Positions 4,014 to 32,186 of a stretch of DNA of 32,186 bases are shown here, one piece after another (positions within the stretch are counted from its first letter, which is position 1; each line of letters starts with the position of its first letter). This stretch comes from Pseudomonadota bacterium (GTDB taxonomy: Bacteria > Pseudomonadota > Gammaproteobacteria > Pseudomonadales > Oceanobacteraceae). The translations under genes were made by a program, and so were the position numbers. The notes under the pieces were generated by a model. The model saw only the letters and a program-made list of their open reading frames with translations. It had not been told where the DNA came from and made no database searches. The stretch covers positions 1 to 32,186 of the forward strand of contig JAYYHP010000001.1 of assembly GCA_036148335.1 (NCBI GenBank). Direction: 5' to 3'.

Positions 4014-4023
4014 CGGGCTCTCC

Positions 4024-4728: not shown

Positions 4729-4820
4729 GAGCGTGTCCTGTCGGTTAGTATGAACAAATGAAAGGTCGGAGAATGCTCCTGACCGATCACTACTCTGCGC
4801 CACAGCCCTTCGTGAAAGCC

Positions 4821-4845
4821 TCACAAAATCATCACAAAGATGTCA
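4821..4845. promoter_or_regulatory. Candidate OmpR/PhoB-type binding site (direct repeats with 11-bp period)
   Basis: TCACAAA at 4821 and 4832, with a third TCA at 4843, about 95 bp upstream of the spondin operon. Confidence 0.5.
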
Positions 4846-7307: not shown

Positions 7308-7335
7308 TTCATAAACCAAGTAGTAAGAGACTGTT

Positions 7336-9522: not shown

Positions 9523-9562
9523 TAACGGACTGTTCAGACTTCTGCACCAGTGAGTTTTGTTG

Positions 9563-9591
9563 TTAGACTTCATCCGGATTCGCCCTATAAT
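9563..9591 (+). promoter_or_regulatory. Putative sigma70 promoter of gshA
   Basis: TAGACT (9564-9569) and a perfect TATAAT (9586-9591) with 16-bp spacing, about 30 bp before the start. Confidence 0.55.
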
Positions 9592-9617
9592 CCGCTCAAC
9601 TCTCCCTGCATCCAGAG

Positions 9618-14423: not shown

Positions 14424-15161
14424 ATGCCCTCTATGACCGCCGGGGTAATCAGTCAGAAGCCACGCATTGTCAGCCAAGCCCGAGCTGTACGTGTACTGGT
14501 GGCCAACGCAAAAGGCGGTTGCGGAAAAACTACCCTGGCGACCAACCTCGCCTGTCAGTTTGCCCGCGAAGGGAAAACAACCACTCTTATTGATCATGAC
14601 CCGCAGGCGTCGGCTACCGACTGGTTAAAACTCCGTAATGCCCGACTGCCGATCATCAACGGTATTGAAGCCGAGCGTGAGAGGCACCGCGCTGGCTCGA
14701 CCCTCAGTTGGCGTATGCGCATTCCGCTGGCGACAGAGCGCGTGGTCATCGATACACCAGCAGGGTTACATGGGAACGCCCTCTCTGACCTCGTTGCTCA
14801 GGCAGACATCATTCTGATACCCGTAATTCCTTCTGCAATTGATATGCGCGCCGCCACAGAATTTATCCACGCATTGCGTAAGACTCAGGCATATCGTCAG
14901 CGTGCATGCACGATTGCCGTGGTCGCCAATCGGGTGAAACGCAACACGCTGAGTTTTAATTCGCTGAAGACGTATCTGGATGAACTCGGTATTCCATTCG
15001 TCACTGCGCTGCGCGACACACAATTCTATGTAAAAGCTGGAGAGCACGGCTTTGGTGTCGTCGACTTTGACCGACAACACCCCAAAGAGCAGGAAGAATG
15101 GCAGCCGCTCATGCACTGGCTTGGCTGTACCATTGACGATATCCGGCAAGCCCAGTCTTAA
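14424..15161 (+). CDS. Orphan ParA/MinD-family ATPase
   Basis: Deviant Walker A NAKGGCGKTT, IDHDPQAS, VIDTPAG, ADIILIPVIPSAID. ATG 14424 with AAGGGA RBS. No adjacent parB. Confidence 0.9.
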   Translation: MPSMTAGVISQKPRIVSQARAVRVLVANAKGGCGKTTLATNLACQFAREGKTTTLIDHDPQASATDWLKLRNARLPIINGIEAERERHRAGSTLSWRMRIPLATERVVIDTPAGLHGNALSDLVAQADIILIPVIPSAIDMRAATEFIHALRKTQAYRQRACTIAVVANRVKRNTLSFNSLKTYLDELGIPFVTALRDTQFYVKAGEHGFGVVDFDRQHPKEQEEWQPLMHWLGCTIDDIRQAQS

Positions 15162-15178
15162 GTGCTAGGTGCTAGGTG
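15162..15178. repeat. Short tandem heptamer (GTGCTAG)x2.4
   Basis: GTGCTAG GTGCTAG GTG fills the whole gap between two convergent stop codons. Confidence 0.6.
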
Positions 15179-15898
15179 TCAGATTTCCGCTTCCAGCCCG
15201 AACAAATTCCTGACTTCGGTACGAACCGCCGCTTTCGCTCCCATACGCAGAACCTGACCGTGCGCACCGACTAAGGCATCAAAATCGAGTTCAATCAGGC
15301 GTTCAAAATCATGCTGCATGGACCCACCCTTCGGTGTGACCCGCTTAAGCCAGGGGGCGCCAATATTCATGCCCCGATGAAAACCTAAGAACCGAAAAGC
15401 CAACTTGGATACCGGAGAAAAATGCGTCCACTCTTTGTGGTACTGCAGACTGTCTGTCGTGATCAGCAAACGACTGCGATGGAGCAATAGCGCGGACTCA
15501 GGATAGCGAGCATTGTGAAACACAAAAAACTCACTGTGTTTTACCGGGCCGGGTGACGCCTCATCCACCAGCACATCGATACCGGGCTCGGGATAGTTAC
15601 TCTGGCCAGCCTGCGCCCAGAAAAGGCACTGGTAGCGGTCGACGTAAAACTGATCATCCGCTCCATGGAAATCGCCCAACCGCACTACCCGGGCGACATC
15701 TCACAGTGCATCAAGGTCCACCAGCCCAGCATCAGACAGTCGTATCGGGTTGACCAATGTGAGTTCCCGACCTTCTCTGAGAATCAACATATTGCGATTC
15801 AGGCGCATGCCGGGGCCAACACGAACACTGCCGTGAACCCAAAAAACGTCGGGGAATAATTCCTGAATATCCTGATGTGGGAATGCGGGTGAATACAT
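15179..15898 (-). pseudogene. DUF4336-like (metallo-beta-lactamase-like fold) gene interrupted by one in-frame TGA at 15703-15701
   Basis: ORFs 15701..15973 and 15179..15685 share a frame. Joined they read MYSPAFPH...NMLILREGRELTLVNPIRL...LDAL*DVARVVRLGDFHGADD...DFDALVGAHG (239 codons). AGGAGG RBS before ATG 15898. Confidence 0.75.
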
Positions 15899-15944
15899 GT
15901 TTCCTCCTGAAACTTCGATTACCTGCACGTACGACTTTGCAGCG

Positions 15945-16373
15945 TTACGGTTGAGCGAGTTGAAGCAACTCACGACATTCCTTTTCCGAACTACAGATTA
16001 GCATAAGACCCTGTAGACCACAGTTCTCCGATGCGGCCGGGCTATCCTTCAATACTGTCCACAATAACCCCAGACCGTAACGCTCTGCTTCCAGTTCGGC
16101 CTTCTTAAGCAACTCGTATAAATCTCCATGCTCACCACGCTGACAAGCACGTCGGCGGTCACGTAAAGGCAGAATCATAGATTCCCGCCATGCCACGTAA
16201 TCCGGTGCATTGAGGGCCTCCTCGGAGATTCTTAGCGCGGTTTCATTCGCCCATAAAACAGCCAGTATCTGCAGAATATCGGCGTCAAACTCGTCCTGCA
16301 GTCGTAGTAAAAGCGACTCGACACCCGGCCGGGAATACACCTGAAGTGCATACCGCCAGAGCGCGTTATTCAT
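15945..16373 (-). CDS. TIGR02444/DUF2390-family protein
   Basis: LWRYALQVYSRPGVESLLLRLQD, WRESMILPLR.RR, LKKAELEAER. This family is usually adjacent to yheS. Confidence 0.85.
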   Translation of the reverse strand: MNNALWRYALQVYSRPGVESLLLRLQDEFDADILQILAVLWANETALRISEEALNAPDYVAWRESMILPLRDRRRACQRGEHGDLYELLKKAELEAERYGLGLLWTVLKDSPAASENCGLQGLMLICSSEKECRELLQLAQP

Positions 16374-16438
16374 TGGTTCGTCACCTGCTTCTGTGGCAAA
16401 CTGCGCCGCCATTAGTCTTACCTTTCTTGATGGGTCTT

Positions 16439-18340
16439 ATGATTGAGTTTACTCAGGTTGCGCTGCAACGCGGTACTAACTTTTTGCTGGAAAACGCCAG
16501 CCTGCGTATTCACGACGGTCAGAAACTGGCCTTAATCGGCCCCAATGGCGCAGGCAAGTCGAGCCTCTTTGCCCTATTGAACGGTGAACTGACTGTCGAC
16601 GCCGGAGACCTCAGCATTCCCGCGAAATGGCGTATCGCGCACATGCAGCAGGAAGTGAGTGCCACCGAACGCACAGCGCTCGATTATGCCATTGATGGCG
16701 ACCGTAAATACCGAGAAATCGAACACGGTATCGCTACTGCCAGCGACGATCAGGTTCTGACACGCTGGATGGACGCAATGGACGAACATCAAGGCTATCA
16801 GGTACCGGTGAAAGCAGAGCAGTTACTGCAAGGCTTGGGATTCTCACAAGCCGATATGCAGCGGCCAGTCAGGGACTTCTCAGGTGGTTGGCGTATTCGC
16901 TTAAATCTGGCACAGACTCTGATGACCCCGTCCGATCTGATGCTGCTGGATGAGCCGACGAACCACCTTGATCTCGAAGCGACCCTGTGGCTTGAAGGCT
17001 GGCTCAAAAAGTATCCGGGAACGCTGCTGTTTATTTCGCATGACCGCGATTTTATCGATTCTGTCGCAGACCATATTGTCCAGCTCCATCAGAAGCAGTT
17101 AATTCAATATCCGGGTAACTACAGCGCCTACGAACGCATACGGGCAGAGAAGCTGGCGCAACAGCAATCTGTGTATGAGAAACAACAGGAGCGCGTTGCT
17201 GAGATCGAGAAATTCGTTGCTCGCTTTCGGGCCAAAGCCAGTAAAGCCAAACAGGCTCAAAGCCGCTTAAAAGAACTGCAGCGCATGGAACTGATTGCAC
17301 CCGCGCATGTGGATTCGCCGTTCCGGTTCGAGTTTCCCTGCTACGAGAAAATGTCGTCGCCTTTACTCGCTATCGACCGGGCAGATCTCGGCTACACCGA
17401 CAAAGTTATTCTGCCGGGTACGAATATTTCCATCGTACCGGGACATCGCATTGGTCTACTTGGGCCGAACGGAGCGGGTAAATCAACGTTATTAAAAACG
17501 CTCTGCGAGGATATTCCACTGATCAGTGGAGAGCGTAGTAGCGGAGAACATTGTCGCATCGGTTATTTTGCTCAGCATCAACTCGAATCTCTTGATGTAA
17601 AAGCGTCTGGTAGCCTGATCCTTCAACGCTTAAAGCCTCAGGCCAGCGAGCAGGAAATTCGAAACTTTTTGGGCGGATTTGGCTTTCATGGTGATAAAGC
17701 GCTTGAAGTCATTGAGCCGTTTTCAGGCGGAGAAAAAGCACGACTGGCACTGGCCTGTGTTGCCTGGATGAAGCCCAACTTATTGATTCTCGATGAGCCG
17801 ACCAACCACCTCGATATTGAAATGCGTGAGGCGCTGGCGCTGGCGCTGCAGAATTTTGAAGGTGCGATTTTAATCGTCAGCCACGACCGTCACCTGTTGA
17901 AATCCACGGTGGATGAATACTGGCTCGTGGATCACGGCAAAGTACAAAGCTTCGATGGTGATCTGGATGATTATCACGATTACATGAATCATCGGACGGA
18001 CGTACCCAATCCAACATCCTCACAGGATGTGAATGCTGTTAATACCCCTGAAGCTAAACCTTCAATCGACCGTAAAGAACAAAAAAGACTCGAAGCAGAG
18101 CGCCGCCAACGATTGGCACCGATACGGAAAAAACAACAAGCTGCCGAAAAGCAGATGGAAAAGCTTCAGGCTGAATTAGCAGACATCGAAGATAAGATGG
18201 GTGACTCGGACCTTTACGATGCCAGCCGAAAAGACGAATTAAGCACATTGATTCAACGACAGGGCGCGTTAAAAAGTGAGCTCGAAGATGTTGAAATGGA
18301 GTGGATGGATTTAACCGAGCAATTAGAAGCAGCCGATTAA
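16439..18340 (+). CDS. yheS: ABC-F family ATPase (YheS-like translation factor)
   Basis: Two ABC cassettes (GPNGAGKS twice; FSGGWRIRLNLA, FSGGEKARLALA; LDEPTNHLD twice), linker RFRAKASKAKQAQSR, C-terminal coiled coil, no TM segments. Confidence 0.9.
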   Translation: MIEFTQVALQRGTNFLLENASLRIHDGQKLALIGPNGAGKSSLFALLNGELTVDAGDLSIPAKWRIAHMQQEVSATERTALDYAIDGDRKYREIEHGIATASDDQVLTRWMDAMDEHQGYQVPVKAEQLLQGLGFSQADMQRPVRDFSGGWRIRLNLAQTLMTPSDLMLLDEPTNHLDLEATLWLEGWLKKYPGTLLFISHDRDFIDSVADHIVQLHQKQLIQYPGNYSAYERIRAEKLAQQQSVYEKQQERVAEIEKFVARFRAKASKAKQAQSRLKELQRMELIAPAHVDSPFRFEFPCYEKMSSPLLAIDRADLGYTDKVILPGTNISIVPGHRIGLLGPNGAGKSTLLKTLCEDIPLISGERSSGEHCRIGYFAQHQLESLDVKASGSLILQRLKPQASEQEIRNFLGGFGFHGDKALEVIEPFSGGEKARLALACVAWMKPNLLILDEPTNHLDIEMREALALALQNFEGAILIVSHDRHLLKSTVDEYWLVDHGKVQSFDGDLDDYHDYMNHRTDVPNPTSSQDVNAVNTPEAKPSIDRKEQKRLEAERRQRLAPIRKKQQAAEKQMEKLQAELADIEDKMGDSDLYDASRKDELSTLIQRQGALKSELEDVEMEWMDLTEQLEAAD

Positions 18341-18357
18341 AGGCACACCATAACCAC

Positions 18358-20148
18358 TCAGACTGCTATCAGCACCTGACGCATGGCATTGCGCAGAAAT
18401 CCGGGCTTAACCGGTTTATGCAGTACCACAATGCCGCCCTCAGAAAATGCTTTAATCTGCTCAGGGGCAGTGTCGCCAGTAATCATTAGTACCGGTAGAT
18501 CGGCACTGACCTCCTCCCTTACCCGCACGCTCAATTCCTGCCCATCCATATCACCAGGCAAGCGATAGTCGGTAAGCAAAAGATCTGGCCATTCAGGCTC
18601 AGACACGACCGAGTCAAAGCCTGCGGCGGCCTCAGCAAACGCTCTGACGTCACACCCCCATCCTTCGAGCAACTGCACCGTACTCTCGCGGACCATAGCG
18701 TCGTCTTCAACCAACAAGACGTTAATGCCCGCAAATACTCCCGCAGCGGTAGACGCTTGCCCCTCAATGGCGGTAACGACTGGTTCCTGTAATTCTGCCC
18801 GCGCCAGAGACAAGGTAAATTCAGATCCTTGCCCAGTTGCAGACTCAACGCTCAGTTCATGCCCCAACAGCGTCGTCAGGCGTCGGCACACAGATAACCC
18901 CAGTCCTAGCCCTTTCTGGCGATCACGTTCCGGATTGTTCAGCTGTACAAATTCCTGAAAAACTTTCTCATGCTGATCTGCCGGTATTCCCATCCCGGTG
19001 TCTCGTATTCTTATATGAACCGTATCGTTACCAGTGCCGTCAGAGGTAATATCCGTATTAATTTCTACCCTACCGTTATCGGTATATTTGATCGCATTGC
19101 TGATCAGATTCCGCAGAATATTTCCCAATAAAACAGGATCACTACGCACAGCACAGTTGTGCGGCGATGTCTCCAGTGTCAGGCCTTTTTCTTCAGCCAC
19201 GGGGCGGGCCTCAATAACCAGACTGTTAATTAACGCGTCCAGTGGGAAGTCGCGGATATCGGCGTGAACGTCTCCCGCATCAAGACGAGAAATATCAAGT
19301 AGCTTTCCTAACAGATCATCTATTGAGGTCACTGCAGAACGAATATGACTGACTAACTGCTGACCACGTTCTGTCTCAGTTTCCTGGCGCATACTTTCAG
19401 ACAACAAAGAAAGTGAATGAACCGGCTGTCGCAGGTCATGACTGGCAGAAGCCAGAAACTGTGTTTTTGCGCGGCTGGCAGCGTCGGTAATTTCATACTG
19501 TTCCCGCAGGCTTTCCGCGAGGCGCATATTCTTCAGAGTCAGCGCCATCATATCCCGATAGGTAATACTCCCGGAGCGAGCAACTGAAAATGCAACGCCA
19601 ATATATGCAAGAAAGGCTAACCCGATACCGCGATACTGTGGGTCAGGCTGACTCAGGCACATGATGATAAGCGGTAAGGTGCTGACAACCAGATATACAG
19701 CATGGCTTAAAAGCCAGACAGAATTAGTACTGACCGACGATACGGTCACCCCAACGATCAGAACAAATAGCAGCATCTGCTCTGTCATAACGCCAACGTT
19801 AAAAAACAACACGCCAGCGCTCCCCCAGAGGGCTGCCAATACCGTCACCCCCGACATATACATACCGCGCCAGAATGTCAGCGAATGGCTTTCATAGCGG
19901 TTGCGATAAGCCCACAGCAAACCCAGCCCAAAGATCTCAAGGCCGACACAGAGGCTGTACCAGATATAACCATAAACCTCACCGGCAGGTGGGCTCTGAT
20001 TAAAAATCAGGACAGTGGTAAGAATCAGGGTGCCAAACGCGATGGTACTGATACGGTCATAGAGGTCATCCGTTGCCCGGCGGCGACGAAAGGCATCGAT
20101 GTCCTCATCGCTTAGCTCTATTTCAACGGCTTCCGTTGTCATTGCCAA
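18358..20148 (-). CDS. Hybrid sensor histidine kinase/receiver with ~6-TM intramembrane sensor
   Basis: About six closely spaced hydrophobic helices, H-box ASASHDLRQP, RNLISNAIKYT, DTGMGI, GLGLGLS, and a C-terminal receiver (LVEDD, LTDYRLP, ITGD, HKP). Start is TTG 20148 or ATG 20142, abutting the regulator stop. Confidence 0.93.
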   Translation of the reverse strand: MAMTTEAVEIELSDEDIDAFRRRRATDDLYDRISTIAFGTLILTTVLIFNQSPPAGEVYGYIWYSLCVGLEIFGLGLLWAYRNRYESHSLTFWRGMYMSGVTVLAALWGSAGVLFFNVGVMTEQMLLFVLIVGVTVSSVSTNSVWLLSHAVYLVVSTLPLIIMCLSQPDPQYRGIGLAFLAYIGVAFSVARSGSITYRDMMALTLKNMRLAESLREQYEITDAASRAKTQFLASASHDLRQPVHSLSLLSESMRQETETERGQQLVSHIRSAVTSIDDLLGKLLDISRLDAGDVHADIRDFPLDALINSLVIEARPVAEEKGLTLETSPHNCAVRSDPVLLGNILRNLISNAIKYTDNGRVEINTDITSDGTGNDTVHIRIRDTGMGIPADQHEKVFQEFVQLNNPERDRQKGLGLGLSVCRRLTTLLGHELSVESATGQGSEFTLSLARAELQEPVVTAIEGQASTAAGVFAGINVLLVEDDAMVRESTVQLLEGWGCDVRAFAEAAAGFDSVVSEPEWPDLLLTDYRLPGDMDGQELSVRVREEVSADLPVLMITGDTAPEQIKAFSEGGIVVLHKPVKPGFLRNAMRQVLIAV

Positions 20149-20775
20149 TTATTCAACCAACAGACCAAGACGTCTGACTTCATTCAGACAAGCAGTGCGG
20201 TTCGTCACCCGAAAGAGTCGGAAAACATCACGCAGATGACCTTTAATTGTGTTCTCCGATATATCGAGCTCACTGGCGATCACCTTGTTCGACATACCCT
20301 GAGCGAGCAGATGAAGAATTTCCTGCTGACGCGGTGTAAGGCGTATCTCAGGCATTTCCTGTTTCTGACTCTCGATCAGTTCCAGCCAGCCTTCAGGCAA
20401 ATACGTCCCGCCATCAAGCACTTCCTGAATTGCTTTAATTAACACTTCTGGTGGTGAGGACTTGGGCAGATAACCCACCGCTCCGTGTTCCAATGCTTTG
20501 CCAGCATCGGCTAATGAGTCAGAGGCAGAAATCATCATCACAGGTGACAAAATGCACATTTGCTGCAGGCGCCGGATCAATGTCAGACCACTGATACCCG
20601 GCAGATTGAGGTCCATTAAAATCAGATCGGGTTGCTCATCCATTGCTCTCAGCACTTTTTCCGCTTCTTCAGCGGTACGAACCTCCGTCGTCTCACAAGG
20701 CGCCAAAGACTGCTCCAGAAGCCGTGCCAAGCCTCCGGCAAAGAGTAAATGATCATCGATAATTAAGTAGTGCAT
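20149..20775 (-). CDS. NarL/FixJ (LuxR-HTH) response regulator
   Basis: IIDDH, ILMDLNLPG, GAVGYLPKS and HTH LTPRQQEILHLLAQGMSNKVIASELDISENTIKGHL. AGGAG RBS. Confidence 0.95.
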   Translation of the reverse strand: MHYLIIDDHLLFAGGLARLLEQSLAPCETTEVRTAEEAEKVLRAMDEQPDLILMDLNLPGISGLTLIRRLQQMCILSPVMMISASDSLADAGKALEHGAVGYLPKSSPPEVLIKAIQEVLDGGTYLPEGWLELIESQKQEMPEIRLTPRQQEILHLLAQGMSNKVIASELDISENTIKGHLRDVFRLFRVTNRTACLNEVRRLGLLVE

Positions 20776-20940
20776 CCTTTCTCCTGTGACATCCTACGGA
20801 GTGCTTTCCTGCATTGACAGGACTGTCAGCTAGCGACACCCCACACTAAAGTGTTGGCCCTAATGTACCCTATAAACTCTCCCAAATTCAGCGGAAAATT
20901 CAGCATTCTGGTTTTTACCAAAATTTCAGGGATGCAGCTG
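20776..20940. promoter_or_regulatory. Divergent promoter region with palindromes and direct repeats
   Basis: TGACAG-GA-CTGTCA (20815-20828), ACACT-AA-AGTGT (20843-20854), AAATTCAGC twice (20884, 20896) and a -10-like TATAAACT (20871-20878). Confidence 0.45.
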
Positions 20941-23900
20941 ATGGACAGGACACCCACCCATTTCTATCTCGCCATGCTTACCAGCGCCATGCTCTTGGCC
21001 GGTTGCGACTCAGGTGGCGGCAAAAACAATGACACGGACGTTCCCGTTTCACCGGACCCTGCTCCGGGCGCGACCATGGTCACGGTGTCCGGTGTGGTAG
21101 AAAAAGGTCCCTTCCAACAAATGCAGGTGAGCGCCTGGGGTATGGACGGCAGCGGCCAGCGCACCCCCTTACCCGCAGAGGTCAACGGCAATGGTTACAG
21201 CGTCTCTGCCCCTGAAGGCAATATCGTTTATCTCGAAGCCGCCGGTAGCTTTACCAACGAACTGAACGGCGAATCACAGCAACTCAACCAGCCATTACGG
21301 GCGATTACTCCCGCCGATGGCCAACCCCAGAATATCAACCTGTTTACCGATCTGGCAGCACAGTGGAGCCTCGGGCAATCGGAGAGCCCGGATGCCGGGA
21401 TGGTCAAACAAGGTGAGCAGGAAACCATGCGATTGCTTGGCCTTTCACCGGATACCGATCCGGGTCAGCTGGGTTTTGGCAATATCAAAGAAGGCGCTGG
21501 GTTGAATGACCCTTCCGTTCAACTGCTGCTGTTTTCCGCCTTTGTGCTGTCAAAACAGGGCGAGTTTCCCAACGGCGGTCTGGGTCAGGCTTTTGATAAT
21601 TTCAAAGAAACATTTGGCCCTGTTAAAAGCAATCCCGAAGGTACGCCGCCTGTCGATTTCTTCGGTGGTATGGACCCGCAGTGGCTACTCGATGCGATTA
21701 TCGCTGCCGGTGTACTGGGCGATCTGCCTCCGCTGGAACTAGGCGAAGTGCCGGTACTGGTGTGTAATCCGCTGTGTCACTGGTTTGACCCTGAAACGCC
21801 CAGCATCAGTCTGAGTGGCACCACAGTGTATGAATCAGATGGCTCGGCGACACTTGAACTGAGCCGCACCGGCACTGATCTGGGTGATATCGACGTCACT
21901 CTGGAAATTAGCTCCAGCGACGCCCTTCCGGGCGAGGATTACCTTACACCAACCACGACTCTGACGTTCGCCGGAGCCGATCGTACGCTTGAGATCCCAC
22001 TGGAGCTGATCATTGATACTCAGGCCGAAGGTGACGAAACCGTCTCGGTCAGTATTACAGAAGCGACCGATGCCAGTGGAAATGACGTCACGCTGGGCCA
22101 AAGCAGCGCCACGATCACCATTAAAGACGGCGCACCTGCTCTTACAGCCAGCGCAGTTGCGCCGACCTCATTATGTCTGCTGGGCAGCGGACAGGGTGAC
22201 GAGCTACCAGCGGACAGTGCCTTCGAAGCGCCTCTGGCGGATCACTGCCAGTCAACGGCAGACGTACAGATATTACTTGCTGAGGAATTACCCCTGCTGC
22301 GTTTGGGCGTCGGTTTGAAAGACGCCTGCAGCTCTGGCTGCAGCGACCAGTTGCTGAACCTGGCACTAACAGCAACGGCCGATGACGGCAGCGTTGAATC
22401 AGTCAGCCTTGGCCAGTTCCGATTCCCGGCCACCAGCATCACCTCATTCGGCGAAATAGCAGAACTGCCTGTCGTTGCCCTGAACGACAGCGATGCCATT
22501 GAATTACTCGTTAATGCCGCCGCCAATGACGAGGAGATTGAAATCAAGGTCACTTCGACCAGCGACTCTACGCTTGAAGTCAGCGCCGCGAGTCCAGTAA
22601 TTCTGCCTTTGCCTGCCGACGTTAATTTTGGCGATCGCACCTTGAGCTTTGATGCACCAGAAACCGATTCTGCACTGAGCTGTCCAGCGGGCAGCATCGC
22701 CATCCGCGACAGCTACGACTACGCCCTCAGCAGCGCGGCGCCGGATGCCACCCTTGATGTCATCGGCAGCGCCTGTATCGATATTGCGACGCTGTCGGGA
22801 AGCGCATCGGCCATCGTCACCGACGCGGATATTGATTTAGGCACCTGGGTCTCTGAACTCCCCGAGTGGCATTTTATGCAGCTGGATATTCTTAATGGAT
22901 CGCCCGCCGGAGACCAGCTCGCCAGTAGTGCTTCGCCACTCTTTATCTGGGACTTCAACGCACTCCAGCCCAGCATAACAGTCACTACTTATTTAGGTGC
23001 TGAGCATCTGCCTTTCCTATATGCGATCAGCGACGCCCGCCTGACCGAGCAAGGGCTTGAGCTGCTATACAGTGATACCCGATTGCGTTCACAGGCCGGT
23101 TTCGCCAGTAACGATCCACGAGCCAACGCCGGTTTCTCCAATCTCAGTCCCTATATCGACGGGCAGTCAGGCACATTACTGCTGACGGTCGATGGCATCA
23201 CCACCAGCACGACCTTCAATGCCCGCGGTGCTGTGTCTGCGTATCCGTTGGGCGTAATAGAATGGGGCGGTTTTACCGCCGATGTGACGAACGGCCAACT
23301 GGCACCCACAGATACCTACGTTGAGTACGCTCTGGCTGGTCAGACCAAAGGCTGCAAAGATCTGAGCTGTACGGCAAATGGCAGCAACAGCTACGCCATG
23401 AGTGCGGCCAGCGCGACGATTTCTGCTCAGGGCATCCTAGCGACCGGCGGCACACTGACTAATGATGCAACCTTGAGCTGGGGTGGCAACTCCGCAGGCA
23501 GCGCCTGGTCGTCTGCGGATGCGACACTTTCTGGCTACAACGTTACCCTCAACCTGCCGGGTAACGCGCCAGCGGGTATGGATATCGCCGCCGAAGCCTT
23601 ACAGGCACACCGCACCGAAACCACGATTGCCGCACCGGGCAGCGACGATTTTATCCGTGGTAACCACTATCCACCGGGCCTGACATTTGGCCCAGAAGAG
23701 TACGCCAACGCGGTGGATGGCCAGCCTGTCGCAGGCAGCGGTGCTCTACTCGCAGGGACCGACCTGACCCTGACCACCGCCTCTGGCACTGTCTCATTCG
23801 ACAGCAGCGTGGCGACCAAATGGGTGGTGCGCAATGATGGCGTTACCGGGGTCTATAACGCCGAACCGAGTACCTTACCGGTAGACGCAACACTACAAGG

Positions 23901-26900
23901 CTACGACTTTACCTTCGACCGCTTCGCTATCCGTACCCGTATGAACGAAGTGGATGAATACAACTGGGTCGACGGTGGTCTGGTACTTAGAGGGGATGCC
24001 GGCGGCGATGGACCAGATGAAGGTTGGGAGATCAATTTCACCAACCAGATCATTGCCTGTAATGGCGAGCTCGGCCGCTCAGTTCTGGCGCAGGAACAAT
24101 GTGGAGGCGATGTCTGCCGACTGGCCAGCTGGCGCGCCGACAGCACCTTAATCGACATGAGCTTCAGCTCACCGGCCAGTTGCGCCAGTGAAACTCAGCT
24201 TATTCAGCTAGGGTTGGAAAGCCAGTTCCTCGCCCTCGATAGCCCACTGATGCTGAGCACGGCATGGAATCCTGACGGCACTCTGGCCACCTCTGAAGCG
24301 CGCTCACAGGACCAATACCTGCTAGATAAGCGCGATGAAACTGAAGGTTTCCCGGTTCAGATCACCGAAGCCAACCTGATTGCTCCTATGGACCTGACCG
24401 AACCAGAGGCCATGCGTTACGGCACGGTAAGTATTAAAGGCCGGGTAGCACTGCCCTTCTGGAATGCACTGGAAGCAGAAGGGCGACTAGCGAATACGCT
24501 GAGCCTGGCCCAGCCGTCTGCGGAGCCTACGGTGTTGGTACCTGAAGGCATTATGAGCACCCTACCAGTAGCGAAAACCGAGGCGCTGAACATCAACCTG
24601 CTCAGCTACCTGAGCGAGACAGACAGCCATGACTTCACCGGCCGCTATGAATGGGGCAACACCGGCTTCGGTTTTGGACTGCCGGTGTATTACGCCGATA
24701 CCAACAACATAGAGCAGGCGACCTTTTTAGGCCGTACCTGGGAGAAAGACCTTTACGTCATGGACGTGAATGCGGGGATTAACTTTATTGAGCCCGTACG
24801 CACCAGTCTGAGCTTCGGTGCCAGTGCCGACTTTGAAAAACTGCGTGAAGTCCGCTTCCAGATCGAACTTGGCAAAGGTGAGGGACTCTCCAAAGTCGAT
24901 GACCTGCTGATCACTGCACGTATTATCGACGAGCCAATGATTGAGCCCACTTTCGGCATAGTGAACACCCAGGTCGAGCGGGTAAATCAGTTTGTCGGCC
25001 GCGGCGTCGATGAACTGCTCGAAAAAGCGCTGCTGGAAGCTCTCGAACAGACAGGCGCAGCAGTGGGTGCTGCCCTGCCAACTCAGGAAGACCCATTCGA
25101 TACCTTAGCCGGAGGGCTTGCCCGTCTGCGCAGCGTTCCCGGTGAAATTACCAACCTACTGGATGAACGTCTGTTTGACCCGGCCAAAGACGCCGTTGAA
25201 CAAGTTGAAACTCAGTTAAGAGCGCCACTGCGAAGTACGATTGAAGATATCTACGACCTCACGCCAACAGATCCGGTACCGCAAAGCGTCTATGACCAAC
25301 TGGATAACGCACAAGCGCAGCTGGGTACCGCGATCAGTAAAATCGAACAGCCCTTTACCCAGTTCGATCAACTGCGTTCCGAAGTCGACGGCAAGGTTAC
25401 CGAAGCACAGGACATCATTACCAAAGTTGAGAACGCGCGCAGTGAAATTGCTCTGATACTGACCGATGTCACCGACGTGGTGACTGCTCAGTGTGAAAAC
25501 ACCGGTACTCTTGGTGCCGAGGTGAACGGCTATCTTGAATCCAGCCTCTCCAGTGTCGGCGATCTGCGCACGCTGGCCGGCCTGCTGCAGGGCTCCGACC
25601 TTCTTATAGTGGTGGCGGACCTCGCCGCCGATGATCCACAGGTACGCGAAAACCTGCTCAGTGCTCAACAAAAAATTCAGAGCGCGGCGGAAGAAATCAC
25701 CTCCCGCCTAGACAGCGCCGAAGAAGCCCTGCGCAACAATCTGTGCAGCAGTGACATTAACCTGTTATTGGCCGAGGCGAATAACGTGCTAACTCAGATC
25801 GGCACGGCAACCGCCACGATAAACGCCAGCATTGCGCAGGTCTCAAACGCCCTGAACCGGGCTGAAGTTGCGGTCGATACTCTGGAAACCACTCTGCTGA
25901 AACCACTGAAAGAGTTTAAACAAACACTTGATGAAGCAGAGCAGCAACTGCGTATTGCCAGCTCCGGTTCCGATGGTGCTGCTCTGGTCGCGCTGATGGA
26001 CAGCATAATGAACAACGCCACCAACGGTGAGTTGACCTGTATCGTACAGCACGATGACAACCTCAGTTGTGACGATATATTCGTCAAAGTCACCGCACCA
26101 GTCACCGCCGAGATCGACACCTTCCGCGACGCAGCGATCAGCGAAATCGACACCGCCGCCGCGCAATACATGCCCGATGTCGCTTATCTCAACGCAGACC
26201 AACTGCGTGGCTTACTGGTCGCTCACATCATGAACAGCCAGCCTGTTCGCGATGTGCGTGAAGCGGTCAACACGCAACTGGTTGAAGTGATGCGCCAGTT
26301 ACAGAACGCACTGCTGACCCTGACAGACAAAGCCAACGAAGCAGTACAGATAGCTCTGCAAAAAGTCGAGAATGAAGCCAACGAAGCACTGGACACCGCT
26401 CTGGCGCCGGTGAAAAACATTCCACTGACCAGTGCCTCGCTCGATGGTTTCGCCACGGTGGCCGGCAATGATCTGGAACGCCTGCATATCGGTGCGGAGT
26501 GGACCATGCTGCCGTCCACCGAAGGCGATCCCGGTAACACGTTCGGGGCCGCACTGGATGTCGTTAGCTGGGCCGCAAACAACAAATCCGCCAGTTGTGG
26601 TGGCGGCGACAACGACAGCAATCTTGATGTGACGATTTCGGTTCTTAACGTTCCGGCAAACATTGGCGAATCAGAACTCAATCTCGCCAAAGTTTATCTC
26701 GGCTTCACGCTTGATGGACCATCTCCGATTGGGGTTGCCGGCGGCCTGCGAGCCGAAGGTGAAATCAAATTTACCGAGTTCCAGATCTATGATCCGGCCT
26801 TTGCAGCAGGGCTTGGGAAACACGAGATCTACCTGGGTGCTGCCGCAGGTGCAGTCTTCAGTGCCATTCAGGCGGAAGTCGCCTTCCTCGCGGGTAAAAC

Positions 26901-27372
26901 CTGTAGTCAGGAGATCCTGATGGATCTCGACCCTAAGGTCGCGCAGTTTATTCCGCTGCCAGACACCGGCTTTACCGGTGCCTATGTACGCGGTGCCGCA
27001 TCTATTCCGATTTATTCCAATGGCTGCCCGCTGACGATTGGTGCTGCGGCCGACATCGGAGCCTGGGTACTCGCTGGCCCGCCTGTCACCTTAGGCGGCC
27101 TCGTTGGCGGTGGTGCCTACGGTAAGGTCGGTTGTGTCGGGGCTCTGCGAGGCCAGATACGTGCCCTGGGCCAGGTAAACACCGACGGCGATATGGTCTT
27201 TGTGGGTGAAGGGTTCGGCGTCGCCGGGCTCGGGCTATGTGAGCCGGCGACCTGGACGTCCGTCGAGCGCTCGCGCAAAGACAAACTGTGTGGCACCGGG
27301 GACGCCATCCTGCGTGCGGGTTACATGAATGGCTGGTCAATTATGGAGATGAAGGTCAGTGCGATACATTAA
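20941..27372 (+). CDS. Giant (~2143 aa) lipoprotein with Calx-beta domain, function unknown
   Basis: Uninterrupted 6.4-kb ORF. ATG 20941 gives the signal MDRTPTHFYLAMLTSAMLLAG|C (lipobox). Calx-beta-like segment at ~21802-22128 (VYESDGSATLELSRTG...GEDY...LTFAG...DTQAEGDETVSVSI...ATITIKD). Confidence 0.9.
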   Translation: MDRTPTHFYLAMLTSAMLLAGCDSGGGKNNDTDVPVSPDPAPGATMVTVSGVVEKGPFQQMQVSAWGMDGSGQRTPLPAEVNGNGYSVSAPEGNIVYLEAAGSFTNELNGESQQLNQPLRAITPADGQPQNINLFTDLAAQWSLGQSESPDAGMVKQGEQETMRLLGLSPDTDPGQLGFGNIKEGAGLNDPSVQLLLFSAFVLSKQGEFPNGGLGQAFDNFKETFGPVKSNPEGTPPVDFFGGMDPQWLLDAIIAAGVLGDLPPLELGEVPVLVCNPLCHWFDPETPSISLSGTTVYESDGSATLELSRTGTDLGDIDVTLEISSSDALPGEDYLTPTTTLTFAGADRTLEIPLELIIDTQAEGDETVSVSITEATDASGNDVTLGQSSATITIKDGAPALTASAVAPTSLCLLGSGQGDELPADSAFEAPLADHCQSTADVQILLAEELPLLRLGVGLKDACSSGCSDQLLNLALTATADDGSVESVSLGQFRFPATSITSFGEIAELPVVALNDSDAIELLVNAAANDEEIEIKVTSTSDSTLEVSAASPVILPLPADVNFGDRTLSFDAPETDSALSCPAGSIAIRDSYDYALSSAAPDATLDVIGSACIDIATLSGSASAIVTDADIDLGTWVSELPEWHFMQLDILNGSPAGDQLASSASPLFIWDFNALQPSITVTTYLGAEHLPFLYAISDARLTEQGLELLYSDTRLRSQAGFASNDPRANAGFSNLSPYIDGQSGTLLLTVDGITTSTTFNARGAVSAYPLGVIEWGGFTADVTNGQLAPTDTYVEYALAGQTKGCKDLSCTANGSNSYAMSAASATISAQGILATGGTLTNDATLSWGGNSAGSAWSSADATLSGYNVTLNLPGNAPAGMDIAAEALQAHRTETTIAAPGSDDFIRGNHYPPGLTFGPEEYANAVDGQPVAGSGALLAGTDLTLTTASGTVSFDSSVATKWVVRNDGVTGVYNAEPSTLPVDATLQGYDFTFDRFAIRTRMNEVDEYNWVDGGLVLRGDAGGDGPDEGWEINFTNQIIACNGELGRSVLAQEQCGGDVCRLASWRADSTLIDMSFSSPASCASETQLIQLGLESQFLALDSPLMLSTAWNPDGTLATSEARSQDQYLLDKRDETEGFPVQITEANLIAPMDLTEPEAMRYGTVSIKGRVALPFWNALEAEGRLANTLSLAQPSAEPTVLVPEGIMSTLPVAKTEALNINLLSYLSETDSHDFTGRYEWGNTGFGFGLPVYYADTNNIEQATFLGRTWEKDLYVMDVNAGINFIEPVRTSLSFGASADFEKLREVRFQIELGKGEGLSKVDDLLITARIIDEPMIEPTFGIVNTQVERVNQFVGRGVDELLEKALLEALEQTGAAVGAALPTQEDPFDTLAGGLARLRSVPGEITNLLDERLFDPAKDAVEQVETQLRAPLRSTIEDIYDLTPTDPVPQSVYDQLDNAQAQLGTAISKIEQPFTQFDQLRSEVDGKVTEAQDIITKVENARSEIALILTDVTDVVTAQCENTGTLGAEVNGYLESSLSSVGDLRTLAGLLQGSDLLIVVADLAADDPQVRENLLSAQQKIQSAAEEITSRLDSAEEALRNNLCSSDINLLLAEANNVLTQIGTATATINASIAQVSNALNRAEVAVDTLETTLLKPLKEFKQTLDEAEQQLRIASSGSDGAALVALMDSIMNNATNGELTCIVQHDDNLSCDDIFVKVTAPVTAEIDTFRDAAISEIDTAAAQYMPDVAYLNADQLRGLLVAHIMNSQPVRDVREAVNTQLVEVMRQLQNALLTLTDKANEAVQIALQKVENEANEALDTALAPVKNIPLTSASLDGFATVAGNDLERLHIGAEWTMLPSTEGDPGNTFGAALDVVSWAANNKSASCGGGDNDSNLDVTISVLNVPANIGESELNLAKVYLGFTLDGPSPIGVAGGLRAEGEIKFTEFQIYDPAFAAGLGKHEIYLGAAAGAVFSAIQAEVAFLAGKTCSQEILMDLDPKVAQFIPLPDTGFTGAYVRGAASIPIYSNGCPLTIGAAADIGAWVLAGPPVTLGGLVGGGAYGKVGCVGALRGQIRALGQVNTDGDMVFVGEGFGVAGLGLCEPATWTSVERSRKDKLCGTGDAILRAGYMNGWSIMEMKVSAIH

Positions 27373-27373
27373 T

Positions 27374-30300
27374 ATGCTCAAGCTTCGGAAAGCATGCAGC
27401 GCGCTCACTATTACCGCGCTGACGATCTTCACCAGCCCGGCCGTCATGGCTGAAGCTCAATTCTACCTGCTGGCAAAACCGGGGCCGGTTGCTTCCATCA
27501 CGGGGACCACCCGCTCGCCGCAGACCGTGTATCTGCGCTGGGATCTGGTCGAGGGCGAATTACCAGCGGATATCAGCCTGTTCCGTCTCTACCGCGATGG
27601 TGCTGAGATCGGTGAGTTCCCGGTATCTGGCACCATGACAGAAGCTGAAATTACCCAACTTTATCAAGGGCCACATCAACAGCGCCGTCTGTTGGAACGC
27701 GTCGCGGCACTTAAGGAAGAAGCTGCGCGCGATGACGATGTCAGCGATTTCCCGGTCAGCCAGTTTGCCGGCCGAATTTATGATCGCCTGAACTCAGACA
27801 GTGACACCTTCTGGACCTCCTTCACTGCGACTCAGGACTTCAACGTCGCCGCCGCACGCTACCGAGCGACTTACGATTATCCGGGCACTGGCACTTTTGC
27901 TTATGAACTGAAAGCCGTCAGTACCACGGGGACAGAGCGCCGCGTCGGTTACGCCGAAGTCGACACCTCGCAACCCGCCACTGTGCTCGAAAATCAGGGC
28001 TTTGCCCAAGTTATGCAGAGTGCCTGTGATGAACCCGACTTCCGTGATCACTACACGGTTGCACTGAACTGGGATGGCCCTCAGACCGGCAGTCAGGCGG
28101 ACGAGCTGGCACACCGCCTTTTCGTTGCGGGTTACGACCTGTACCGCAGTAGTAGCAACCTTGATGTTTCAGTGACTTCAGCACCTGTTCGCAATCTTGC
28201 GAATGAAGCGGCTGCCGCCAGCGCAGACTCTCAGGGCAATGCTCAGTTTGCTGGCCTTGAGCGCGTCAACGACGTGCTGGTGCTGTCTCAGCCAGACAAT
28301 ACCGACACCGCCGAGTGGCTTGAAACCCGTGAAGACCTGCTCAAAGCGGGGCTGCAACCCGGTGACAAACGTGCCTACTATCTTGTAGCGCGTGACTTCA
28401 GTGGTCAGTTAGGCCCGACCATGGCGACCATAGTGACGGTGCCCGATATGGCACGGCCACCTGCGCCATGGGATATCCGCACGTATCTGGATGAAGCCAC
28501 GCAGGAAGCCGAACTCAGCTTTCCGGCGATCAACGTCACTTCATACCTTGAACGCGCGAGCGACAGCCGTGAGATCTGTCTGACCGATGCCGTTGACGAC
28601 GGTGTGATCGAGTTTGTACCAGAAGGTGAGAACTGCACAACCTTCCCGACGACGCGCGTCCATACCGAGATTGACGAATACCTGCTGTATCGCTTTGAAA
28701 GCTTCGATGCCGCCAGCAAGTTCAAAGACAGCGACGGCGATGGCTACCCGGATATGACCGAGCGCCTGTCTGGCACTCAGTGCTCTCCAGCCACCAGCGA
28801 CGGTCCGTTTTTGGCCGCGCGCATTGCTCCTGAAGCTGATGAACTCGGCCGCGTCCGCATTACCGACGCCGAACCCGCCGACAACAAAGGCGATATTTAC
28901 TGGTATCGCATCGCAGCCAAAAGCAAAGGTGGCAACTACAGCCTGCTGACGGAACCTGTGCGGATAAACTTCCCAGACCGCGATTTACCGGCCGCGCCGG
29001 AAGTGGGTATGACCCGACCTGAACGTCAGATCTGTGACTGTGCGATCAGTTACAGTGGTACAGACACGCCATGGCAGATGTCGGTCTCGTCAGCACTCGA
29101 TTCATCGAGCATCCGCGCCAGTTGTCAGGGCGTTGATCTGGGCTTAACAGAGAAGCAGATACTCAGCCCAACGGACAGCGGCGATGCCTGTGCCATTTAC
29201 AACTACGCCTGCAACGACAGCTTCCCAACCTTTACGTTGAATACCGGCAGTGGCCAGCGTCAATGTGAAGTGACCCCAACCGGTGGTAATAACTTCTGCT
29301 ATTCCGGCACCATGAGCATTGAGCCTGTGTACTGCGATGAGCCCGTTCCATTCAACGGCGGCATCAGTCGCACCCCGGTGACGATTGCAATCCAACCACC
29401 TGCTGGCAGCTGCGCCACTCTGTATCAACGCATTGGCGGACTCTCGACACGAGTAGGCACAAGCTGTAGCGAAACTGATCCGGTACTGGAATACACACAC
29501 GATCAGGGCGAGTTCTGTGGCTATGCCGTCGCTCAGGACGGCAACAACAATATCTCGCCAGTCACCACGATCCCGTGTCTGGTCATTGCCGATGATATGG
29601 CGCCCGCCCCAGTCACGCCGCGACTGACCGATCTATTACTGGGCAGCAGCGAAGCAACCCTGCACTGGTACTCACCCAATCAGCCACAAACAGTCAATGA
29701 AGTAGAGCTGGAACGCACCGCACCGGCCGGTCTGGCTCCGATGCGCACTTCTGTCGGCGCTCAGAATGGTGGCGATTTGCAGGCAATATTCACTCTGCCC
29801 CCACAAGCTTCGAGCACCGAGGAATGGTGTGCCCGCGTGCGCTCGTATGGCCTATCCACCGATATCAGCAAGCCAAGCATGTCGGACTGGAGTGCACCTG
29901 TGTGTGTAACCCGCTCTACCTCTGTGCGTCCCGCCTGGCTTCCCTGGCCAGTCGCGGAAGAAATCCCCCAGGGCGACGACCTGTATCCACAAAACAATCA
30001 GATCGCAGCCAGCCCAATACGCAGTCCGTTAAGCAACGGCCTGCATATTCCACTGACGGATATATTCCTGCCTGCAAGTGGTAAATGTGAACGTTCGCTG
30101 AGCAGAAGCGGATACGCACAGAACTATGATCAGGTCGATGGTGATACCTGGCTCCACCTTGAATGCCCGACGTCCTCGGCAGCACCGCATAAGGCAGATA
30201 TCAATAGTGCACTGAACATGATGGTATTCCGCCAGGCTCGTAATACTGCTGGCCAGACATCAGAGCTGATTCAGGTATCGCCGTTGTTGCAGCTGGCGTT

Positions 30301-30562
30301 CTGGAACCCAGAGCTGCCATACAAAACCGATAGCACAGGCAAAGTATGGCTGAATGACCCGTATATCTGGTTGAGAGCGGATCTTGACAAGGTCGTTAAT
30401 GGCGAAATCCGCACAACCGTTGCATTTGTCGACCGTGCGGGCCTGATTGACGGGATGGAGTACCGCTATCAGATCGTCTGGTTTGATGATCGTCATGCGC
30501 TGCGTGAGTGGCGCATGTCTGACTGGACCGCCTACAGCGCCAGCACAGGAGGTGCCGAATGA
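27374..30562 (+). CDS. Large (~1062 aa) exported Cys-rich protein with FN3/Ig-like modules, function unknown
   Basis: ATG one base after the upstream TAA. Signal peptide ending AVMA|EA. FN3-like motifs (VYLRWD..FRLYRDG, LNWDGP..GYDLYRS, AYYLVARDFSG, YWYRIAAKSKGGNYS, DGMEYRYQIV) and one DSDGDG motif. Confidence 0.88.
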   Translation: MLKLRKACSALTITALTIFTSPAVMAEAQFYLLAKPGPVASITGTTRSPQTVYLRWDLVEGELPADISLFRLYRDGAEIGEFPVSGTMTEAEITQLYQGPHQQRRLLERVAALKEEAARDDDVSDFPVSQFAGRIYDRLNSDSDTFWTSFTATQDFNVAAARYRATYDYPGTGTFAYELKAVSTTGTERRVGYAEVDTSQPATVLENQGFAQVMQSACDEPDFRDHYTVALNWDGPQTGSQADELAHRLFVAGYDLYRSSSNLDVSVTSAPVRNLANEAAAASADSQGNAQFAGLERVNDVLVLSQPDNTDTAEWLETREDLLKAGLQPGDKRAYYLVARDFSGQLGPTMATIVTVPDMARPPAPWDIRTYLDEATQEAELSFPAINVTSYLERASDSREICLTDAVDDGVIEFVPEGENCTTFPTTRVHTEIDEYLLYRFESFDAASKFKDSDGDGYPDMTERLSGTQCSPATSDGPFLAARIAPEADELGRVRITDAEPADNKGDIYWYRIAAKSKGGNYSLLTEPVRINFPDRDLPAAPEVGMTRPERQICDCAISYSGTDTPWQMSVSSALDSSSIRASCQGVDLGLTEKQILSPTDSGDACAIYNYACNDSFPTFTLNTGSGQRQCEVTPTGGNNFCYSGTMSIEPVYCDEPVPFNGGISRTPVTIAIQPPAGSCATLYQRIGGLSTRVGTSCSETDPVLEYTHDQGEFCGYAVAQDGNNNISPVTTIPCLVIADDMAPAPVTPRLTDLLLGSSEATLHWYSPNQPQTVNEVELERTAPAGLAPMRTSVGAQNGGDLQAIFTLPPQASSTEEWCARVRSYGLSTDISKPSMSDWSAPVCVTRSTSVRPAWLPWPVAEEIPQGDDLYPQNNQIAASPIRSPLSNGLHIPLTDIFLPASGKCERSLSRSGYAQNYDQVDGDTWLHLECPTSSAAPHKADINSALNMMVFRQARNTAGQTSELIQVSPLLQLAFWNPELPYKTDSTGKVWLNDPYIWLRADLDKVVNGEIRTTVAFVDRAGLIDGMEYRYQIVWFDDRHALREWRMSDWTAYSASTGGAE

Positions 30563-32186
30563 AGCGTTTACCCATTTCAGTTATTGCCACCGCAATACTT
30601 ACTGGTACCAGCCTGCCCGTCGCGGCATCACTGTTTGATGATGCCTATAACAGCTACTGGGTAATTAACGAAGATACGGGCGAGATTACTGGCTACAGCT
30701 CTGGTAACTGGGAAGAGCGCTATCGCAACGCGCTGTATGTACCGGCTGCGAACGAACAGGTGTTAGTTAACTCGCTTGCCGCCAGTTCAACACCCATGTC
30801 CGCCCCGCTGGCCAGTCCTCAACCACTGATTTCGGTCATCGGCTTGCAGGAAGTTAATGTCGATAGCAGCACCGCTGAGTTAAATATCTCACCGACCAGC
30901 GGCTCTTACGACCAGACCGTCCGGGTGGTGATGGAAGCCGGCAGCACCAGTAGCGCCGATCAACTCCAGTGGCGCGTGAACGGAGGCGCCTGGCAATCGG
31001 TAGATATCGACACAGAAAACCGCAGCGCAACGGCTACCTTTATCGAAAATGGCGCCTATACCCTCAATGTTGAGCTTCTTCAGGGCGGGACGCTGCTCAG
31101 CAGCGCACAAATGCTCTACACCGTCGCCAGTGATCATCCATTGGGCAAACGGCGCGATAGCGACAACGATGGCATTCCGGATATCGTCGAGGCCGAGCTG
31201 GGCCTGAACGCGCTGAGTGAAGATGCCGATGTTGACCGCGATGGTGACGGCTGGAGCGACATCGATACGTATATCCGCTGCGGTGTTGTATCGCAGGCAG
31301 AGATTGACGCCCAGCCCGAAGCAGATCGCTGTACGGCCTTAAACGACGACGACAAAGATGGCTGGAGCAATTTCGACGAAGAGCTGCGCGGCACCCGCAT
31401 TGATGACCCGGAGGCTGCGTTGTCTTCAGCCTACGGCGCAGTAGGTTCACCCGCGTATTATCAGGAACAACAGCGCTATCGACAGTACCCGGCAGCGCGT
31501 CGCCTGTATGAGCGCGAGTATTTTATTCAACAAGCCGATGTTCCGGCTCTGTTACTGGACCTGCAGGCAACCACCTTCAGCGGCGACCCAATCTGGAATG
31601 TTAGCGATCTCATCAGCACCGAAGAGCTGACTAATGCCGGCCTGAGCATCAGCGATGTCGAACCAGAGCTGATTGCAGACACGGTTGCTTTCGTTATGGG
31701 AGGTACTCAGATTCCAGAATTCCGTGCCCCCGCAGCTTCCGGCGTCTTCCTGCGTGGTGAGTCCGTGTCATCTCTGCGTACGTCCATGACCTACCTGCCA
31801 CCGATAGGCGATGTTACGTTTGCAGAGTTTTCCGCAGATCCAGACGCCGCCGGCGACTGGGCCTCAGCCAGCGAGTGGCGCGACAACCTGGTGAAATGGC
31901 TGGGTAAAGAGCTGGTCATCGCGGGCTCACCGGGCCTGCACGAGTCGACCACACTGTCGCTTCTGATGCTGGAACAGGCCCTGCGTGACGAAGCCGACGA
32001 GCGTGAAGAAAGTCGCCTGCTGGAGCTGGGTAACCGCGAGCGTCCTGCGCCCTGGTTAGATGAGTGGCTCAGCGAACACCGTGCGCGCTTCCCCGTTACT
32101 GCGCCTGAATCCTTTTCCGGTACCTGCTTCTTCCGTGGCGATACCTTTTTGGTCAGCGGCTCTACAGAGGGCTGCGACATTTCGGT
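30559..32186 (+). CDS. Exported protein with Ig-like module and DxDxDG Ca-binding-type repeats, 3'-truncated (>542 aa; not in the ORF track)
   Basis: AGGAGG RBS and ATGA overlap with the previous stop. I translated frame 1 by hand and found no stop up to the window end: MKRLPISVIATAILTGTSLPVAA|SLFDD...ISPTSGSYDQTVRV...DSDNDGIPD...DRDGDGWSD...DDDKDGWSNFDE. Confidence 0.88.
   Translation, partial: MKRLPISVIATAILTGTSLPVAASLFDDAYNSYWVINEDTGEITGYSSGNWEERYRNALYVPAANEQVLVNSLAASSTPMSAPLASPQPLISVIGLQEVNVDSSTAELNISPTSGSYDQTVRVVMEAGSTSSADQLQWRVNGGAWQSVDIDTENRSATATFIENGAYTLNVELLQGGTLLSSAQMLYTVASDHPLGKRRDSDNDGIPDIVEAELGLNALSEDADVDRDGDGWSDIDTYIRCGVVSQAEIDAQPEADRCTALNDDDKDGWSNFDEELRGTRIDDPEAALSSAYGAVGSPAYYQEQQRYRQYPAARRLYEREYFIQQADVPALLLDLQATTFSGDPIWNVSDLISTEELTNAGLSISDVEPELIADTVAFVMGGTQIPEFRAPAASGVFLRGESVSSLRTSMTYLPPIGDVTFAEFSADPDAAGDWASASEWRDNLVKWLGKELVIAGSPGLHESTTLSLLMLEQALRDEADEREESRLLELGNRERPAPWLDEWLSEHRARFPVTAPESFSGTCFFRGDTFLVSGSTEGCDIS

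Follow-up and report, generated by a model that had tools for sequence, protein, structure and literature searches.

A conserved operon of giant exported proteins is a candidate surface capture or adhesion system in several bacterial phyla

Here we describe a 17-kb, three-to-four-gene envelope module that is kept in fixed order over several bacterial phyla and that begins in a 32,186-nucleotide stretch of DNA, referred to below as the window. The window is the entire contig C1 of a 63%-complete genome, and we assign its host to Thalassolituus because protein B of the module is 92–94% identical to Thalassolituus maritimus records. The genes of the module (A, B and C, joined by D in many Gammaproteobacteria) keep their order and tight coupling, are inherited together, and encode proteins with export-type N-termini and with fixed cores and variable ends. 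We rate the module as a real, conserved and undescribed envelope system with a function that we infer: tentatively, at little short of an even chance, we read A, B, C and D as co-inherited exported proteins that form one surface capture or adhesion machine, in which a fixed scaffold carries exchangeable tips. An earlier note, made from the window alone, had proposed an undescribed system at this site, and no account of the module was found in the literature searched, in which subscription journals were not covered.

Results

Three coupled genes encode giant exported proteins

Gene A (positions 20941–27372, plus strand) encodes a predicted lipoprotein of 2143 residues counted from its ATG, with a variable N-terminal Ig-type part and a conserved core from about residue 650; an alternative in-frame GTG start lies upstream at 20851. 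A single base, 27373, separates it from gene B (27374–30562, plus strand), whose 1062-residue product, again counted from ATG, has a Sec-type signal and FN3/Ig-type domains strung in a chain, with inserts that are helical or carry Cys/Ca motifs. Gene B overlaps gene C by an ATGA at 30559–30562. The window holds the first 542 residues of C (30559–32186, plus strand), which is open at the contig end; it has a conserved N-terminal region with thrombospondin-type-3-like (TSP3-like) repeats and, in relatives, variable C-terminal adhesive domains.

The three consecutive open reading frames (ORFs) of the earlier note, together with their 1-bp gap and ATGA overlap, hold at these coordinates, and most of what it said of their products is borne out. 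All three proteins have export-type N-termini, a lipobox (LLAG-C22) in A and hydrophobic stretches in B and C. All three are acidic, with isoelectric points of 4.08, 4.49 and 4.12 for A, B and C and net acidity at the 94th, 85th and 96th percentiles of 861 long ORFs of the same genome. Each carries a motif of a calcium-binding type, namely a Calx-beta domain in A (residues 293–396, positions 21817–22128, plus strand; PF03160, E = 4.9e-10) and DxD/NxDG motifs in B (one) and C (three), with none of the latter in A. The statement that the first two are Cys-rich stands for B (1.98%, 94th percentile of the same ORFs) but not for A (1.17%, 69th percentile). A pattern search of A, B and C found no RTX, HExxH, YD, CxxCH or Walker A pattern; the note, too, had recognised no catalytic motif, RTX repeat or Rhs/YD repeat. 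Identity with an Rhs toxin was considered and rejected. In a Pfam scan of the three proteins the Calx-beta domain of A is the sole match above cut-off, and an NCBIfam scan gave no match above cut-off; over its full length, the set matches no characterised system in Pfam, NCBIfam, PDB profile or structure searches.

Relatives complete the operon and confirm that it can hold more than three genes. In genomes G004, G005 and G010, C is 1441–1464 residues long and is followed, through a further ATGA overlap, by gene D, which encodes a lipoprotein of 1063–1076 residues. The rest of C and all of D are not in the assembly that contains the window. A 17.6-kb contig of run X1 spans both genes; it possibly comes from the source sample and is hence not independent.

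The module is inherited as a unit

A scan of GTDB genomes with B yielded 50 loci in Gammaproteobacteria, Myxococcota, Campylobacterota and Spirochaetota. All 46 loci with upstream DNA have A directly before B, a count that leaves out four loci with at most four upstream bases, and C lies downstream of B in 45 of 45 loci with enough DNA, five that end too soon being left out. D comes after C in 18 of the 37 loci with a complete C. To avoid selecting loci by B, we also took a 25%-identical A (P0308) as the query against metagenomes; six of the eight loci obtained have A-B-C, one is cut inside B and one holds part of A only, and four of the eight resemble one population. In both searches the families stand together in order at each informative locus, the linkage on which the earlier note had made its proposal depend. 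Over 25 loci, chosen by leaving out six near-duplicates or split genes, pairwise distances correlate at 0.89 for A-B, 0.68 for A-C and 0.78 for B-C, and the trees of the three proteins have most clades in common.

The module is also rare and patchy. Of 12 further genomes of the genus, 4 were found to have B, as against 0 of 28 from the family and order, and 399 other Gammaproteobacteria gave no full-length match. The module is present in 7 of 151 members of a Myxococcota sample, the sample centre included, and in 0 of 120 other Campylobacterota. Named carriers are Thalassolituus maritimus, Saccharospirillum, Glaciecola, Alcanivorax and Lentisalinibacter records. In genomes G001 and G009 (99% complete) the 17-kb operon is missing as one block, since the response-regulator gene there abuts the thioesterase gene that elsewhere lies after D. 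A needed role in hydrocarbon growth, a phenotype that the earlier note had named, is doubtful because B was not found in the other 8 of the 12 genomes of the genus. No secretion, toxin or immunity gene is conserved with the module. Contigs of four RNA libraries, which come from three studies, match A, B and C, for the most part at 90–99% identity; one contig bridges the C/D junction, and among the RNA contigs listed none bridges A/B or B/C.

Fixed cores carry variable ends

The C family keeps about 500 N-terminal residues with TSP3-like repeats (a TSP3_bac domain is found in 16 of 30 homologues) and ranges from 973 to 2187 residues in length, with PKD, cadherin-like, Calx-beta, FG-GAP, Lcl_C or propeller domains in its variable C-termini. 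Some C proteins end in tails that are PEP-CTERM-like (locus L041, E = 0.002), IPTL-CTERM/XrtH-like (L047, L061) or dockerin-like (L046), all below curated cut-offs. D has IPT/TIG-type domains, and its profile aligns over 60 residues with the surface glycan-binding lipoprotein SGBP-B (E = 4e-8). No toxin domain was found in any C or D protein scanned, nor a conserved small downstream gene in 37 loci. Where D is lacking, other large exported proteins can come after C, such as a 1783-residue protein with PKD and FGE-sulfatase-like domains (L047:16389–21740) and a 989-residue PKD lipoprotein-like protein (L035:17975–20944).

In A, conservation increases from residue 650 and is highest in the last 350 residues. 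Its N-terminus has the Calx-beta lipoprotein form in most Gammaproteobacteria and bears FG-GAP, BNR, MAM, HYR or PPC domains in other lineages. Of the long A ORFs, 24 of 34 show the lipoprotein pattern, and mis-called starts account for some of the rest.

A word-indexed search with B found 119 homologues, the majority near-equal to it in length, and the wider relatives of B form 207 clusters (50% identity) with E < 1e-30 and 1158 with E < 1e-3. The near-fixed length and the lack of a variable binding domain fit a structural subunit. The model of B (mean predicted local distance difference test score, pLDDT, 90; predicted template-modelling score, pTM, 0.62) shows FN3/Ig-type domains in a predicted chain, the first of them interrupted by a helical insertion, and the best single-domain match is to FN3 (Z 11.3, root-mean-square deviation (rmsd) 2.8 over 100 residues). 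Look-alikes of B in the Atlas are chiefly Verrucomicrobiota clusters; a profile search aimed at Bacteroidota FN3 proteins returned the same family only. PDB sequence searches with the B and C profiles gave nothing below E 0.02. One B homologue (P0132) carries a C-terminal class 3 lipase fusion (Lipase_3, GHSLG motif, E = 1e-22).

The conserved part of A is predicted to end in a large amphipathic sheet

An AlphaFold model of A residues 960–2143 (pLDDT 83) predicts a beta region, then a long helical bundle, then a C-terminal 16-strand meander. The amphipathic bundle (about residues 1313–1820; 24877–26400, plus strand) shows a hydrophobic periodicity of 3.5–3.8 in most of its long helices. The domain behind it (residues 1829–2143; 26425–27369, plus strand) is the most conserved of A: a predicted antiparallel meander sheet with one uncharged, Gly/Ala-rich face and six Cys, ending in SAIH. 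In the model a 54-residue helix precedes the 16 amphipathic strands, most of which have one nearly uncharged face made up about half of large hydrophobic residues and about half of Gly/Ala/Ser. Judged from alignment ranges, strands near residues 1274–1297 seem to be joined to this sheet. Mean-field covariation over the sheet (121 rows, effective 72) gave noise only, and no strong hydrophobic hairpin was seen in A, the maximum Kyte–Doolittle (KD) value being 1.62.

In our reading the C-terminal domain is an amphipathic sheet that is open and has no close relative among solved structures. Matches of the A profile in a PDB sequence search were confined to Calx-beta proteins and to amphipathic or coiled-coil helices of a generic kind, ApoA-IV among them, and Foldseek against viral models gave no match at E 0.001. 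An Atlas look-alike of the domain is DUF6603 (PF20248), at 0.87, which is under 0.9 and concerns 23% of that cluster; it is a lead only, with no Pfam match, and a literature search on the DUF6603 term found nothing.

Discussion

A candidate surface machine and its alternatives

A surface assembly with a constant scaffold agrees with the fixed gene order, the translational coupling and the pairing of fixed cores with swapped extracellular ends. A surface role is favoured over a purely periplasmic one because C carries swapped adhesive domains and sorting-like tails. The proteins would be exposed at the surface and would assemble stoichiometrically. Of the earlier claim of a membrane-anchored, multi-subunit surface or periplasmic assembly, the linkage thus stands as conserved and the surface is the favoured side, but the physical assembly is conjectural. 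Export would proceed by Sec, plus Lol for A and D, and calcium and disulfides would stabilise the assembly on the cell surface. The helix-plus-sheet module of A would be the working part, gripping a membrane, a lipid or another hydrophobic surface; B may be an FN3-chain adaptor that links the parts, and the swappable ends of A and C would set the binding target. The anchor would differ by lineage, being the lipid of A or D or the C-terminal tail of C, and the machine would let the cell attach to particles, to oil or to other cells, or capture something from them.

Several observations weigh against such a machine. The pTM of the A model is only 0.48, the matches of A to lipid proteins are weak, and the uncharged Gly/Ala-rich face of its sheet may just pack on A's own helices. 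A hydrophobic tail is present in only 5 of 37 complete C proteins, the C type of the window being without one, and in the distant group C is matched over no more than its Ig and DxDxDG part. Loci of close kin do not count as independent, and shared ancestry alone can yield the agreement of the trees. The lipase fusion to B is known from one sequence only. The evidence for expression is weak because RNA-library contigs may contain DNA and do not show a single transcript, and the function of the module rests on inference.

One alternative is that the C-terminal domain of A is an outer-membrane beta-barrel of 16–18 strands, which would make A an autotransporter-like anchor or export channel, with B, C and D as partners or cargo of a new, dedicated secretion or display system. 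We hold this to be unlikely. A does share with autotransporters and porin-type barrels a variable, passenger-like N-terminal part and, in its predicted fold, a long helix and a 16-strand amphipathic meander at the extreme C-terminus; porins make up most VIA matches to the domain (Z 11–13.7), 109 of 118 partly redundant rows end in His (71) or in Phe/Tyr (38), the distant A group ends in WDVDF/Y, and the named hosts belong to Gram-negative lineages. However, the rmsd to every porin is 9–12 Å, a value that suggests an unclosed sheet, and the model does not fit onto closed barrels. The strands have long loops and conserved Cys at both ends, His ends more rows than any other residue, 9 of the 118 rows end in neither His nor Phe/Tyr, no autotransporter or porin family profile of Pfam or NCBIfam matches A, and B and C are obligate partners. 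A wide open amphipathic sheet, as read here for A, is also what ApoB100, vitellogenin/lipovitellin and MTP display, along with a beta region and amphipathic helices, and ApoB100, vitellogenin and MTP are the top Foldseek rows for A. A could be a bacterial apolipoprotein-B-like device in which the sheet and the helix bundle enclose a cavity that holds lipid; with B and the tips it would make a surface machine that attaches to oil droplets, to particles or to the membranes of prey in order to extract lipid, a proposal that we judge unlikely. The matches have E values of 9e-4 to 1e-2, template-modelling (TM) scores of at most 0.09 and about 10% identity, with no family match, and the ApoB belt fits the model (Z 13.0, rmsd 14.8) on a par with porins; the likeness to large lipid transfer proteins is at most one of shared design. 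A further alternative, a periplasmic trans-envelope lipid bridge of the AsmA/TamB/YhdP kind, would suit the N-terminal lipid anchor and the long beta-rich region that leads into a large amphipathic sheet. In E. coli, Asp at position +2 after the lipoprotein Cys is an inner-membrane retention signal, and the A of the window has Asp after Cys22, but this residue is not conserved. A and C have domains of extracellular type and tails that resemble sorting signals, the module is rare and dispensable, and no AsmA-type family matched, so that the bridge is highly improbable; AsmA-type and TULIP folds are not among the 50 structural rows listed for the A model, an absence that does not exclude them.

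Quite unlikely, in our view, is an antagonistic or lytic particle, in which binding tips would find a target cell and the bundle and sheet of A would damage its membrane. Patchy, block-wise gain and loss, polymorphic ends, the greater frequency in the Myxococcota sample and an alignment of the helical bundle with ClyA/Hbl-type pore-former folds (Z 10–11.8) would all agree with it. The pore-former match is generic, however, because designed helical bundles reach Z 14.6, and the absence of a toxin domain, of a conserved small downstream gene and of a strong hydrophobic hairpin speaks against such a particle. The TANFOR loci of Bacteroidetes (PMC7073777) resemble the module in being patchy clusters of giant Sec-exported, FN3/PKD-rich proteins with variable C-termini, and the FN3 chain of B and the PKD domains in C reproduce this trait of TANFOR neighbourhoods. 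The module differs in its phyla and in that no TANFOR domain, toxin, immunity gene or type IX secretion signal was found; the TANFOR model TIGR02542 had no NCBIfam match in A, B, C or D or in distant A, B and C. A remote kinship of B, or of the sheet of A, with proteins of TANFOR loci is a conceivable lead, and Bacteroidota FN3 clusters are among the Atlas look-alikes. The umbrella toxin particles of Streptomyces, the subject of PMC11062931, are likewise secreted multi-protein assemblies with diversified binding domains, but the module has no toxin or ALF-repeat match, unrelated folds, membrane-anchored subunits and Gram-negative hosts. Finally, A, B and C might be co-regulated yet separate adhesins or matrix proteins that form no complex: each has its own export signal, and operon order by itself is no proof of binding. 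This is distinctly improbable given that B is never without A and C in informative loci, down to about 25% identity, and has a near-fixed length without a variable binding domain.

Relation to other known systems and significance

DxDxDG calcium repeats in exported proteins are also a feature of MtsC/MtsD and CglD of myxobacterial cohesion and motility (NF047638, NF047639, NF033765), and C matches these models over the repeats; its scores are far below cut-off (20.8 against 400 and 17.1 against 800 bits), and A and B do not match. A giant RTX adhesin of the type I secretion system was considered and rejected, as N-terminal signals are present, there is no RTX pattern and no conserved neighbours of the ABC, membrane fusion protein (MFP) or TolC type were seen. 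The passages concerned of PMC6304351 make no mention of fibronectin, Calx or adhesins.

One Calx-beta domain aside, two core proteins of the module have no family profile or solved relative, and the most conserved domain has no clear structural match. If lipid capture or a new export route were true, the module would matter for the ways in which marine bacteria attach to oil, to particles and to cells and obtain food from them. A new channel that exports its own cargo across the outer membrane would be about as interesting as lipid extraction. Direct testing is feasible because named strains carry the module and close relatives are without it as a clean block.

Neighbouring genes and genomic context

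The divergent two-component system that the earlier note placed beside the operon is present. It consists of a NarL/LuxR-type response regulator of 208 residues (20149–20775, minus strand; REC and LuxR in Pfam, with the NCBIfam matches shown all below cut-offs) and a membrane hybrid histidine kinase of 596 residues (18358–20148, minus strand; HisKA, HATPase_c and receiver in Pfam), both neighbours and not conserved parts of the module. Between regulator and A lies a divergent intergenic region of 165 bp (20776–20940), whose regulator-proximal part is retained in operon-less genomes and which contains the edge of the insertion or deletion; no sigma-70 consensus promoter was found upstream of A. 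Control of the operon by this pair, as the note supposed, is unsupported as a feature of the system, because the pair is kept without the operon and other lineages have unrelated regulators. Genomes G001, G009 and G007, in none of which B was found, have a kinase orthologue (74–86%) beside the same ABC-F site or regulator. Among the loci, only L012–L014 have an orthologous pair next to the operon; the other 47 have none. In a selected scan, the upstream genes elsewhere include an ECF sigma factor with a Ser/Thr kinase, MalT-like ATPase regulators, winged-helix TPR proteins, 7TM-DISM kinases, a solo LuxR protein, a GGDEF protein and a monooxygenase. Judging from these neighbourhoods, an upstream regulator is common, its family is not fixed and it appears to be recruited locally; within this genus, control by the two-component pair is possible.

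The operon has a GC content at third codon positions (GC3) of 0.61–0.62, like host genes, and a recent foreign origin is rejected on this ground. A prophage origin was likewise rejected, and no homologue was found in the plasmids or the viral contigs searched. The two-component genes (18358–20775) have a GC3 of 0.50–0.52 and the ABC-F gene one of 0.53, most measured flanking genes lying at 0.58–0.63. No paralogue was found in the 63%-complete genome; by a tblastn comparison, another very long ORF of this genome (C218, 2268 residues) has no relation to A.

Genes for exported proteins seem to have a hotspot behind the ABC-F gene. In G005 and G010 the operon is closely followed by genes for two paralogous 1070-residue exported proteins (L007:9223–12441 and 15124–18354) with Big_9, a beta-propeller and two CxxCH motifs; in the window's own genome such proteins are on C335 and C31, and the adjacent small lipoproteins differ between genomes. 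A second ABC-F copy, 88% identical to that of the window, is on another contig of the same assembly (G000:C335:6571–7863) and possibly stems from strain mixture or contamination. Elsewhere in the window, two tandem Spondin_N proteins (E = 1e-6) are encoded at 930–4824 (minus strand), upstream of an OmpR-type regulator and a HAMP kinase, and positions 4974–11183 (plus strand) hold, in order, Tex, a TonB-dependent receptor, glutamate-cysteine ligase, FliL, DsbB, Rsd, a WD40 propeller lipoprotein-like ORF, DUF4124, a ParA-like protein and DUF2390.

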